A stretch of 64,000 bases of DNA from Rhizophagus irregularis (Eukaryota), in contig NC_089430.1 of the NCBI RefSeq assembly GCF_026210795.1, positions 2,170,001-2,234,000 of the forward strand. The letters run 5' to 3'. The notes below the pieces were generated by a model, which saw nothing but the letters and a program-made list of their open reading frames with translations, was not told where the DNA came from and ran no database searches. The position numbers were made by a program, and so were the translations under genes. Shown piece by piece: positions 41,827 to 49,509 of this stretch (its first letter is position 1; each line of letters starts with the position of its first letter).

Positions 41827-44800
41827 TTAGATTGCACAATCTAAACATTCAGAATAATTGTGGTCTTTTGTAACATCAGTAAGTATTTTAGATGAATATT
41901 CAGAATTGAGGTCTTTTGTAAGATCAGAAAGTAATTGATATTTATAAATATCTACTTTTCTACCTTTCTTTAAGTGCGAAATTCTATAATTTTCTGCTAT
42001 TTCTACTTCATATGAATACTTAGTAGTTGAAATTAACAAAAGTGATTCAAATAATCCAGTTACATTAGGTCTGTTATTTGGATTTGGATTCCAACATCTT
42101 TTCATTAAGTCTATATAACTTTTTGGTGCTTCTTGTTCATTTATATCAGGTCTAACTCCGTCACAGATATCTAGTGTTAAAAGTTCATCATGCGCACAAT
42201 TGGAAAAAGGTTGTTTGCCAGTTGCTACAAAATACATAATCATACCCATACTATAAATATCTGCTGCTTGAGTATATGGATTTCCTCTTAGTACTTCAGG
42301 AGCCATATAAGGCAAAACTCCATAAATATTTGTTTTTTCTTCATTATCAACTTTTTTACATAATCCCATATCTGAAATATAAACATCTGCTCCAATAGAA
42401 GGATTAGTAAATAGTATGTTTCCCGTATGAAAATCATGATGAACCATCTGATTGTCATGAATTTCTTTAAGACCCTTGGTAATACTGCACACCTTTTGTA
42501 GTTTCTTTTTCCAATCAAAACATTCATAATTTTTATTAAAACTTAACCATTTGCCAAAATTTCCACCTCCTGCATATTGAAGAACAATAATATAACGATC
42601 TGTATTAATATCTTTGGATATTCCATATACTGTTAGAATATTACTATAATTTAATTTAGTTGAATATGCATCAACCTATAAAAAATTCATTATTTTTTAG
42701 TAATACAAATTTTTTACTAAATTAAAATCGTTTAATAAAAATTCAAAGAAATATATACCTCATTTAGAAATTCAGTAATAAGATTTTGTGAGTTGTTTAA
42801 ACATTTTAAAGCAACTGATTTAACTGGCTCTCTTATATAATATCCATTTTGAACTTTATTATATAATGGACCATCCATCCATATTGCTGAATATACTTCA
42901 GCAAAACCACCACTTCCAACTTCATTAATGTCACAAAATTGACCGTATGGTATCCATTCAAATACTATGTCATTATGATTATTTGCTTTTAATTGCATTT
43001 TATGAACAAAATCATCAATTTTATCGTCTTTACTTGCAAAATCTGTGAATATTAAAGAATCATTTTGAACTAAAATATAATCATTTGTATCTGGTTTTTG
43101 AGATATTCCATACAATACAAGAAATGATCTTATCTCTGTTGAATATTTTTTAGCCTAAATATAAACAAAAAAAGATAAATATGTATGTTAAAAGATAGAA
43201 TTGCTTGCAATATTTGTAAATGTTTTATACCTCATTTATTACAAATTCTACGGAATTTTGTGAATTATGTAAGCATTTTAAGAGAACACTTTTATTTGAA
43301 TCTCTTGTATAATTTTCCTCCCGTATACCATTCTTGTAGTGTAATGGACCACCTCTCCATATTGCTGAATATAATGTTATAGAGCCATTTTTGTTCATTT
43401 CATTAATTTCATTAAATTGACTGTATGGTATCCATTCTAATACTATATTATCATGTTCAGTTTTTAATTGCATTTCTTGAATGAAATCATCAATTTTTTC
43501 ATTTCCACTTGTCCAAATCAAATAATTTCGAACCAAAATGTAATCGTTTGTATCTGGATTTTGAGATATTCCATAAAACTTATGAACCCTTTTACCAAAT
43601 ATTATACTTGAATTTGAATATCTTTTGACCTAAGGTACAACAAAAGAGATGAGTATATTTCATTAAAGAAGTATTATATTAATTAAATTTTATACCTCAT
43701 TTATTACAAATTCAATAAGAACTTGCAAGTTATGTAAACATTTTAAAGTAACTTTTTTATTTGAATCTCTTGTATAATTTTTACTCAATGGACCATTTCT
43801 CCATATTGCTGAATATATTGTTATAGAACCATTTTTGTTCATTTCTTTAATTTCATTAAACTGACTGTATGGTATCCATTCAAATATTGTATCATAAGAA
43901 TTATGGAGCATTTCTTGAATAAAATCATCAATTTCCTTATTTCCACTTATCCAATTTACGAATGTTGAAGAGTTATTTTGAACTAAAATATAATCATCTG
44001 TATGTGGATTTTGAGATATCCCATAAATCTTAATAAGACAACTTTTTCCAAATATTTTGTTTGAATATTTTTTAACCTAAGGCATAATAAAAGAGATGAG
44101 TCAGTATACCTCATTAAAAAGTACTACTTACTAATTAAATTTTATACCTCATTTATTACAAATTCAATAGAATAATGCAAGTTATGTAAACATTTTAAAG
44201 CAACTTTTTTATTATAATCTTTCTTGTATAATGGACCATCTTTCCATATTGCTGAGTATATTTCTATAGAGCCATTTTTGCTCATTTCTTTAATTTCATC
44301 AAATTGATTATATGGTATCCATTCAAATAATGTTTCATAAGAATTATAGAGTATATCGTGTACATAGTTATCAAATTCTTTATTTCCACTTATCCAATTT
44401 GTGAAATTTAAAAAATTAGCCTGAACTAAAATGTAATCATTTGTATCTGTATTTTGAGATATTCCATACAATACAGGAAATGACCCTTGTTTTGTTAAAT
44501 ATTTTTTAGCCTAAATAGAAACATGTGTTACAATATTAAAAGAAATTAAAAAATAACAGTAGAAATAATATACCTTATTTATTAAGAAGTCAATTGTATT
44601 TTGTGAGTTATGTAAACATTTTAAAGCAACTACATTATTTGAAATTCTCATATGAATTTTACTCCGTTTATTCTTATATAATGGACCATCTCTCCATATT
44701 GCTGAATATAATGTTATAGAACCACTTTTGCTAATTTCTTTAATTTCATTAAACTGATTGTATGGTATCCATTCAAATATTATATCATTATATTTAGTTT

Positions 44801-47800: not shown

Positions 47801-49509
47801 TTAAAGCAACTACTTTACTTGAAATTCTTTTATAATTTTTACTCTTTTTAGACTCCTTATAGAATGGACCATTCCTCCATATTGCTGAATATGTTGTTAT
47901 AGAATCACCTCTGCTCATTTCTTTAATTTCGCTAAATTGACTGCATGGTATCCATTCAAATAGTATACTATCATTATATTCAGTTTTTAATTGCATACTT
48001 TGAATAAAATCATCAATTTTTTCATTTCCACTTGTCCATGTAAAATAATTTTGAACCAAAATATAATCATTTGTATCTAGATTTTGAGATATCCCATAAA
48101 TTATATGACCCCTTTCTCCAAATATTGTACTTGAATATTTTTTGACCTAAGGTACAATAAAAGAAATGAGTATATTTAATTTAAAGCGCTATATTAATTA
48201 AAATTTATACCTCATTCATCAAAAATTCAATAGGATCTTGCAAGTTACTATGTAAACATTTCAAAGTAACATTTTTATTTGAATCTCTAGTATAATTTTC
48301 CTTCATAATATTCTTGTAGTGTAATGGACCATCTTTCCATATTGCTGAGTATATTGTTATAGAATCATCTTTGCCCATTTCTTTAATTTCATTAAACTGA
48401 CTGTATGGTATCCATTCAAATAATGTTTTATTATATTTAGTTCTTGATTGCATTCCTTTAATGAAATCATCAATTTTTTCATTTCCACTTGTCCGGATAA
48501 ACCAATTTTGAACCAAAATGTAATCATTTGTATCTGGATTTTGAGATATACCATACAATACATAAATTGATGCATATTCTGTTGAATATTTTTTAGCCTA
48601 ATTATAAACAAATGAGTTAAATGTATTATATTAAAAATGAAATTAAAAATAATTGCAGAAATAAAATTTTACCTTATTTATTAGGAAGTCAATGGGATTT
48701 TGTGAGTTATGCAAACATTTTAAAGCAACTGCTTTATTTGAAATTCTTTTATAATTTTTATTTTTTTTATACTCCTTACTATATAATGGTCCATTCCTCC
48801 ATATTGCTGAATATGTTGTTATAGAATCAATTTTGCTTGTTTCTTTGATTTCATTAAACTGAGTGTATGGTATCCATTCAAATACTACATCATTACGGGT
48901 GTTTCCTTTAAATTGCCTTTCTTTAATGAAATCATCAATTTTTTCATTTCCACTTATCCAATTTACGAGGGTTAAAGAATTATTTTGAACCAAAATATAA
49001 TCATTTGTATCTGGATTTTGAGATATACCATACAATTTAAGAAATGGCCCAAATTTTGTTGAATATTTATATTTTTTAGACTAAACATAAACAAAAAAGA
49101 TAAATGTATTATATATATTAAAAAAAATTAGAAATAATTGCAAAATATATTGTACCTTATTTATTAGGGAGTCGATAGGATTTTGTGAATTATGTAAACA
49201 TTCTAAAGCAACTTTTTTATTTGAAATTCTAGTATAATGTTTATCCCGTTTACTCTTGTGTAATGGACCATCTCCCCATATTGCTGAATATACTGTCATA
49301 GAACTACTTTTGCTGATTTCTTTAATTTCACTAAACTGACTGTATGGTATCCATTCAAATACTATGAAATCATGGTCTACAACTTTTAATTGCCTTTCTC
49401 GAATAAAATTATCAATTTTTTCATTTCCGCTGGTCCAATTTTTTAATTTATTTTTTAAATGTTTTAAATAATATTTTGAATATTCGATGCCTATATTTTG
49501 CGAAGACAT
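41827..49509 (-). CDS. 16-exon TKL-type kinase, about 2210 aa, with 15 tandem N-lobe repeats. Exons 49509-49156, 49080-48673, 48597-48211, 48146-47754, 47681-47304, 47239-46856, 46791-46399, 46329-45964, 45891-45499, 45426-45025, 44960-44574, 44510-44148, 44076-43696, 43629-43231, 43154-42759, 42675-41827
   Basis: All 15 introns are GT-AG and phase 0, and every exon length is a multiple of 3. The last repeat has GSGGFAEVY...VALKCL...EFLNE. The final exon has HHDFHTGN, DMG, APE and DIYSMG. Confidence 0.87.

Follow-up and report, generated by a model that had tools for sequence, protein, structure and literature searches.

The 64,000-nucleotide stretch of the Rhizophagus irregularis genome considered here (assembly GCF_026210795.1, contig NC_089430.1, positions 2,170,001 to 2,234,000 of the forward strand), hereafter the window, carries on its minus strand, at 41827..49509, a gene that encodes 15 kinase N-lobes in tandem followed by one C-lobe. 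A second array gene of another repeat type and a paralogue with a single N-lobe lie in the same window. We regard this architecture as real, under selection and part of the kinase expansion already known from arbuscular mycorrhizal (AM) fungi, and it is apparently undescribed. The features concerned, numbered from the first letter of the window, are the following.

41827..49509, minus strand: whole gene, 16 exons, 2210 aa, type B array, period of about 128 aa, no zinc finger.
49156..49509, minus strand: exon 1, with the ATG, a short leader and the alphaA-beta0-beta1-beta3-alphaC part of lobe 1, with the degenerate loop SKSSSM.
48673..49080, minus strand: exon 2, beta4-beta5 of lobe 1 and the front of lobe 2.
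48211..48597, minus strand: exon 3, gene model.
47754..48146, minus strand: exon 4, gene model.
47304..47681, minus strand: exon 5, gene model; its donor is used in run X17.
47240..47303, minus strand: intron 5, 64 nt, missing from a 214-nt contig of run X17.
46856..47239, minus strand: exon 6, gene model; its acceptor is used in run X17.
46399..46791, minus strand: exon 7, gene model.
45964..46329, minus strand: exon 8, gene model.
45499..45891, minus strand: exon 9, gene model.
45025..45426, minus strand: exon 10, gene model.
44574..44960, minus strand: exon 11, gene model.
44148..44510, minus strand: exon 12, gene model; the matching of two contigs of run X20 ends at its two ends.
43696..44076, minus strand: exon 13, gene model.
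43231..43629, minus strand: exon 14, gene model.
42759..43154, minus strand: exon 15, beta4-beta5 of lobe 14 and the catalytic N-lobe (GSGGFA, VALK, alphaC Glu).
41827..42675, minus strand: exon 16, beta4-beta5, hinge, C-lobe (HHDFHTGN, DMG, APE), tail and stop; Pkinase match, E 8e-35.
46725..47633, no strand assigned: youngest duplication, 461 identical nt at an offset of 448, intron included.
2..5394, plus strand: second array gene, type A, period of about 141 aa with one CxxC per repeat; at least nine N-lobes and a C-lobe, cut by the window start.
56908..58441, minus strand: single-lobe paralogue with a full zinc-finger-like CxxC-rich leader and a phase-0 intron of 76 nt after alphaC, at 57853-57778.

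Read from the ATG at 49509 to the TAA at 41827, the 16 exons give a coding sequence of 6633 nt without internal stops, in which a profile made from the window's own exons counts 15 N-lobes and then one C-lobe, in agreement with the complete gene of about 2210 aa and 15 N-lobe repeats described in the first-pass annotation of this DNA. All 15 introns are GT-AG, lie in phase 0 directly after the N[EK] of helix alphaC, measure 63-83 nt and contain one to five in-frame stops each; the lengths of seven of them are not multiples of 3. That annotation had also stated that every exon is a multiple of 3 in length and free of stops, of which the second part stands, while the first is partly built in by the analyst's placement of the exon boundaries in phase 0. 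The 14 internal exons come in 11 lengths, with gaps at 15 distinct intervals, and the frame is kept in all of them; each consists of beta4-beta5 of one lobe followed by alphaA-beta0-beta1-beta2-beta3-alphaC of the next. As already proposed, the functional-looking loop GSGGFA is confined to lobe 15, lobes 1-14 reading [SGN][KR]xxS[IMT] at the glycine-loop position, and CxxC is absent from the repeats.

The terminal kinase displays GSGGFA, VALK, the alphaC Glu (NE), HHDFHTGN, DMG and APE; it is of the non-RD kind (HHD), and its intact Lys, Glu, Asp, DMG and APE predict catalytic activity. Exon 16 passes the Pfam cut-offs for both Pkinase (121 bits against 31.7) and PK_Tyr_Ser-Thr (114 against 23.1), the match of exon 15 is sub-threshold, and the three further exons scanned from this gene showed no kinase match, which would make such arrays invisible to Pfam-based kinome counts. 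The 2210-aa protein is fully covered by the 15 N-lobes, the C-lobe and short ends, with no NACHT or NB-ARC domain. It also lacks a hydrophobic segment (maximum KD19 value 0.88), a feature found in only 3 of 149 arrays, and a reading as a membrane receptor was rejected for this reason. The C-terminal tail contains a 48-nt (16-codon) tandem duplication, 81% identical, at 41856-41946.

Evidence from sequencing runs covers 24 of 1948 pieces and 15 of 92 joints among the matches listed. At least half of the sampled words were present in 15 of the 24 listed runs, none of which is on record as RNA; the 20 runs with matches come from 11 studies, and the best-matching one may itself be the source of the sequence. 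In run X17, RNA by guess, the 214-nt contig joins exon 5 to exon 6 with intron 5 removed and no differing letters; the joined string does not occur in the window and is four letters off the exon 6/7 join, and, as exons 5 and 6 end in the same letters, exon 6 joined to itself would give an identical string. Of the junctions, for which the first-pass annotation had named RNA support as a check, 1 of 15, that of exons 5/6, is directly seen, presumably in RNA. In run X20, two contigs lose their match at the two ends of exon 12. Run X8, also guessed to be RNA, was rejected as such, its contigs running through introns 6, 7 and 15 as DNA would. Joints at 92% likeness are mostly cross-matches between paralogues and were left unused.

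AlphaFold models of relatives predict for the repeats the fold of a kinase N-lobe, that is, a five-stranded sheet plus alphaC. P0098, which has five lobes and a C-lobe, was modelled with a predicted local distance difference test score (pLDDT) of 72 and a predicted template modelling score (pTM) of 0.53, with an identical order of helices and strands in every repeat; this model matches JAK, RIPK1 and BRAF, which suggests that the nearest fold is that of the tyrosine kinase-like (TKL) and tyrosine kinases. For the repeat-only P0268, to whose type the repeats of the 41827..49509 gene are about 62% identical, the best model reached a pLDDT of 77.8 (the remaining four, 42-69) and a pTM of 0.62, the latter hinting at a fixed packing between neighbouring repeats. 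This model aligns with RIPK2 residues 8-98 (Z 9.7, root-mean-square deviation 2.2, 86 residues) and with MLKL (Z 9.6), and all of its 50 listed structural matches are kinases or kinase-domain proteins, with which Foldseek concurs, JAK being the top Foldseek match for both models. Against PDB sequences, the matches of exon 15, to KSR and EGFR, were weak (E about 0.07-0.08).

Selection on the protein, which the first-pass annotation had deduced from the open exons, is borne out by the ratio of non-synonymous to synonymous substitution (dN/dS): under a codon model that, like all selection models used here, does not include recombination between repeats, it is 0.44 across the repeats (p 5e-12 against 1), and 0.36 on the 79 gap-free columns. 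Pairwise, the 14 repeat units have a median of 0.59 by NG86, with none of 91 pairs above 1, and of 0.35 by YN00 (60 pairs computed). The repeats are under purifying selection on their strands and helices, with values of 0.15-0.39 in alphaA, beta0-1, beta2, beta3, alphaC and beta4-5, and their loops are near-neutral, with 0.67-1.32 in alphaA-beta0, the glycine loop, the beta2-3 insert and alphaC-beta4. The other window gene has a dN/dS of 0.39, and a stop is present in only 4 of 82 full-length metagenome lobes.

The architecture is also widespread. Searches at E<=1e-10 with one exon from each array gene retrieved longer proteins, 536 for the 41827..49509 gene and 164 for the other; the best 120 matches for each were examined, within a search limited to proteins of up to 2000 aa, so that alleles of the 41827..49509 gene itself could not appear. 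A profile search of 50% representatives added 135 proteins. Of 377 sequences, 193 consist of N-lobes followed by one C-lobe, one has another order and 183 are without a detected C-lobe; an internal C-lobe is absent in 376 of them. At least two N-lobes plus a C-lobe occur in 157 of about 500 sequences, with a maximum of 15 N-lobes, in counts that include alleles and re-annotations and come from searches favouring long arrays. The arrays are from R. irregularis, R. clarus, R. diaphanus, Glomus cerebriforme, Acaulospora morrowiae, Cetraspora pellucida and Diversispora epigaea, and this spread over several Glomeromycotina genera upholds the earlier suggestion of a general system rather than an accident. 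The relatives are deposited under the name 'kinase-like domain-containing protein', and matches in the ESM Atlas were confined to Mucoromycota clusters with no name or with a kinase name; none of the 107 pattern matches from scanning metagenomes with the C-lobe was a relative. The locus tags OCT59_008295-008672 (about 380 tags on one 4.92-Mb R. irregularis sequence) include 21 of the 120 listed type B relatives, in a dense cluster of array kinases.

Three repeat types can be distinguished: type A, with a period of about 139 and one CxxC (the other window gene); type B, with a period of about 127 and no CxxC (the 41827..49509 gene); and type C, with a period of about 156 and two CxxC, which single-lobe kinases also have in their leader. 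In motif counts covering all but 13 proteins of mixed or doubtful type, the loop GG[FYC] is found in 123 of 128 catalytic lobes versus 6 of 737 repeats (type A, 58/59 vs 5/270; type B, 37/39 vs 0/274; type C, 28/30 vs 1/193). The beta3 Ala, which we take to be the residue capping the adenine in PKA numbering, is likewise kept in 123 of 128 catalytic lobes versus 195 of 737 repeats, which retain the beta3 Lys in 607 cases and WIP in 618. Allele-like pairs with C-lobes 97-98% identical differ in the number of lobes (9 vs 8, 8 vs 6, and 10 vs 7), their repeats being otherwise collinear. Pairs with 100% identical C-lobes from different annotations vary in lobe count too, as predictors skip phase-0 exons, and prediction noise is therefore inseparable from repeat-number polymorphism.

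In the youngest duplication, the identical tracts 46725-47185 and 47173-47633 (period 448) overlap by 13 nt encoding ISQN, which places the crossover inside the ISQN turn between beta4 and beta5, within an exon. Intron similarity follows both flanks, namely the end of the preceding exon (Mantel rho 0.65) and the start of the next (rho 0.62; p<0.001), whereas the two ends of the same exon are uncorrelated (rho 0.05); the unit is thus an N-lobe plus its intron, recombining inside exons. Two intron subtypes are interleaved along the array (introns 1-14), each going with a particular alphaC end (NK or NE in most cases) and a particular start of the next exon (AKKY or VKKY). We infer that unequal crossing-over between the conserved beta4-beta5 hairpins lengthens and shortens the array. 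Exon shuffling through introns was rejected as the duplication route, as each intron moves together with the sequence on both sides and the latest crossover is exonic. The breakpoint had been placed just after beta5, which holds for the outer edge of the array but not for this crossover.

The alphaC intron itself was found at 74 of 75 testable sites from 60 metagenome loci with a permissive test, and at 76 of 106 sites, contig ends included, with a looser donor motif and a stricter acceptor. Since the single-lobe paralogue at 56908..58441 and the metagenome sites carry it, this intron is ancestral, and the exon logic shared by both arrays is inherited and not convergent, contrary to the significance first attached to it.

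Repeats of the same gene are closer to each other than to those of the other gene, as noted from the start: those of the 41827..49509 gene are at the median 67% identical among themselves (best pair 97%), 62% to other type B repeats, 49% to the catalytic lobe of the same protein and 37% to the repeats of the other gene, which among themselves have a median of 85%. The N-lobe trees unite the type A repeats in a clade (support 95/88) among the type A catalytic lobes, the type B repeats in another (99/97) within a B/C group (100/95), and the Acaulospora lobes in one of their own (100/100); a single clade of A and B repeats is rejected (approximately unbiased test, p-AU 1e-8), and the intermixing of the two genes' repeats that would have pointed to a single origin was not seen. 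The C-lobe tree has three single-lobe kinases branching one after another below type A (100/96, 99/96, 98/85), between the two array lineages, and the arrays as one clade are rejected (p 1e-80), in a comparison where some singles may be truncated models; against the 11 well-formed singles only, p-AU is 0.021 and rests on one protein, P0460. The trees were built on subsamples (97 and 62 of 828 lobes, and 56 of 211 C-lobes), without C-lobe-only fragments and, in the N-lobe tests, without the long branches P0348, P0258 and one P0316 repeat.

As the repeats of the two genes do not mix and each go with their own catalytic lineage, separate origins are supported at the level of the family, and we consider it probable that type A and B/C arrays arose separately, a single old origin with later losses being less probable. 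The first claim of at least two origins therefore holds, with moderate support, between lineages, but not in the sense of the 41827..49509 gene building its own array, given the 62% against 67% identity above. The nesting of type B among type C makes it most likely that type B goes back to a C-type array which lost its zinc finger. Array swapping between catalytic lineages was not supported, type B C-lobes as one clade not being rejected (p 0.33). In P0362, from Diversispora epigaea, two N-lobes are identical at 156 of 163 positions, with GGF intact in both and the break at beta4; this protein is possibly a newborn array, or else an assembly error.

How such a protein might work can be proposed from sequence and models. 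Docking via N-lobe surfaces is known for RIPK- and RAF-type kinases (the TKL dimer surfaces). In the 41827..49509 protein, 14 N-lobes without an ATP loop, each presumably self-folding, would be chained ahead of one intact-looking TKL-type kinase, and this chain would bind putative partner proteins and thereby set the activity of the terminal kinase. The partners may most likely be other members of the roughly 2500-member kinome of the fungus, or their regulators, and the chain would lengthen or shorten through unequal crossing-over at the beta4-beta5 hairpins, with the ancestral intron carried in each unit. That the repeats are a cytosolic, non-catalytic docking chain regulating the terminal TKL-type kinase is a reading to which we give about even confidence. 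In its favour stand the gene model with the spliced exon 5/6 contig, the N-lobe fold predicted for relatives, the low dN/dS of strands and helices, the loss of the glycine loop from the repeats with beta3 Lys and WIP mostly kept, the C-lobe confined to the end, the way in which introns follow their flanks, the rarity of stops in metagenome lobes and the lack of a hydrophobic segment. Several observations weigh against it. The overall dN/dS of 0.36-0.59 is relaxed, and whatever precedes a kinase that is needed has to remain in frame and probably also folded. A positive-selection class appears on all columns (M8 vs M8a, p 4e-7), at sites that flank indels, and positive selection was discarded as not robust because the signal vanishes on the gap-free columns (p 0.10). 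The retained beta3 Lys may be weaker evidence than it seems, Lys codons being favoured in a genome of 25% guanine-cytosine content. Among the 183 proteins without a detected C-lobe, at least one (P0268) is an annotation fragment of a longer, 1335-aa gene, the others being indistinguishable from decaying copies; and one splice junction in 15 has been directly seen.

Alternatively, the arrays may be a tolerated by-product, with unequal crossing-over in a huge clustered kinase family duplicating N-lobes that remain in frame and folded only because a needed kinase follows. This we hold to be rather unlikely. It would account for the family-wide expansion and clustering (21 of the 120 listed matches on one sequence), for the near-neutral loops and for the loss of the glycine loop, expected once the C-lobe is missing; P0362, with its fresh two-lobe duplication and intact loops, suggests that the event readily happens, unless it is an assembly error; and, as far as the accessible text of PMC8647823 goes, kinase genes sit in highly methylated, non-core regions. 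Debris of this kind would not, however, be expected to persist as arrays of 5-13 lobes in R. irregularis, R. clarus, R. diaphanus, Glomus cerebriforme and Acaulospora, nor to keep repeats intact at only 53-62% identity between genes, with a core dN/dS of 0.15-0.39. Moreover, type A and type B repeats each form a clade apart from the catalytic lobes, which argues for long-lived modules and not fresh debris.

The repeats could instead be bait for proteins directed at kinase N-lobes, whether foreign effectors or non-self proteins, with binding switching on the terminal kinase, a model proposed for plant tandem kinase proteins, and shuffling renewing specificity in the manner of fungal NOD-like receptor (NLR) repeat arrays. 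The non-RD trait has been linked to immune kinases, and the terminal kinase is non-RD, yet the family is mostly RD, with HRD present in at least 83 of the 141 C-lobes listed. Putative alleles vary in repeat count, a difference that may be an annotation artefact. A dead kinase-derived module fused to an active kinase also recalls the tandem kinase protein model (PMC8761531), and the 85% internal conservation of type A is at the level that marks fungal NLR repeats (PMC4986451), at least in the portions of both papers available. Against this stand the selection result above, the single positively selected site of the other gene (p 0.009, 8 recombining sequences), and the finding of no NLR neighbour among the 14 long open reading frames (ORFs) scanned in the window, and we judge such an immune decoy unlikely. 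Even less credence, and very little indeed, goes to a splice cassette, in which exon skipping would join any donor to exon 16, as all 15 introns are phase 0 at one position at the alphaC end, and so swap the N-lobe paired with the C-lobe to give many isoforms. One X20 contig does join the exon 12 donor to sequence unlike the window's exon 13, but X20 contains only 0.21 of the words and the contig may come from another allele or a paralogue. As none of 274 type B repeats keeps the ATP loop, swapped isoforms would be poor kinases; the intron is ancestral and not specific to arrays; and the sole clean junction links neighbours, the exon 16 acceptor appearing in none of the 15 joints listed (of 92).

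The window contains several other features. A 115-bp unit is repeated 4.6 times at 5455-5989, directly past the stop of the type A array gene, and a 20-nt unit 57 times at 7925-9069 (91% match), low in complexity and open in several frames (ORFs 7674-9259). A T-rich tandem array of a 176-bp unit, 2.9 copies, lies at 33679-34176. About 200 nt downstream of the stop of the 41827..49509 gene, at 41053-41614, inverted arms of 38 nt (74%), rich in ATCCGGAT and 486 nt apart, could be a small non-autonomous element. Also present are a small cysteine-containing ORF with a hydrophobic start, secreted in appearance and without a Pfam match past the cut-off (16760-17155, minus strand); a protein with an ML domain (MD-2/NPC2-like, lipid-binding), whose start resembles a signal peptide (19254-19718, plus strand; Pfam E 4e-8); and a Kelch-repeat exon by Pfam, which likewise begins like a signal peptide and belongs to another expanded family of AM fungi (20636-21385, minus strand).

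Kinase lobes are usually treated as one unit, and here the N-lobe appears as a free-standing, selected tandem module in well over 100 database proteins. A precedent for a single lobe as an independent domain is KIND, the kinase non-catalytic C-lobe domain, which occurs once or twice per protein; KIND is likewise non-catalytic, but it is a C-lobe, unlike the N-lobes in long tandem arrays described here. The arrays would offer a testable handle on the role of the enormous AM-fungal kinome, and a natural system in which to study N-lobe docking surfaces without catalysis and the repeated origin of one protein architecture. In R. irregularis, the PF07714/TKL-type kinome was put at 2533 members (bioRxiv 10.1101/2022.10.19.511543), and the terminal kinase belongs to it, passing the Pfam cut-offs (PF07714/PF00069) with a full set of catalytic motifs. 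The papers on this expansion differ in counting genes by Pfam domain and, in their accessible parts, do not mention N-lobe arrays (PMC6123716; PMC8647823; bioRxiv 10.1101/2022.10.19.511543). More generally, no description of kinase N-lobe arrays was found among the titles and abstract openings listed in searches of the open-access literature, although subscription papers on AM-fungal genomes and their supplements, outside this scope, could mention the architecture, and isolated N-lobes were not found in the available text of a pseudokinase review (PMC13519141).

Plant tandem kinase proteins (Rpg1, WTK1-4; PMC8761531) and the JAK pseudokinase-kinase pair share with these arrays a non-catalytic kinase-derived module fused to an active kinase. 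Their modules, as far as the available descriptions go, are whole bilobed domains, usually one extra, whereas here the module is an N-lobe only, in 1-14 extra copies, with a single terminal C-lobe; with one C-lobe in 2210 aa, the protein does not contain two complete bilobed kinase domains. The WD, ANK and TPR arrays of fungal NLR proteins, in the part of PMC4986451 consulted, resemble it in their tandem folded repeats (the fold being predicted here), in internal homogenisation and possibly in variation of repeat number; measured against their benchmark of repeats more than 85% identical across 100 aa, one pair exceeds it here and the median falls below, the other window gene standing at 85%. 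They differ from it in that here there is no NACHT or NB-ARC, the repeat is a kinase N-lobe and positive selection is not established. More speculatively, and in our view doubtfully, AM fungi may on at least two or three occasions have made of the N-lobe a new class of tandem-repeat recognition domain, that is, shuffling half-kinases with variable loops that would sense self or non-self and trigger the fused kinase, in which case these arrays would represent a fungal counterpart of both NLR repeat arrays and plant tandem kinases.

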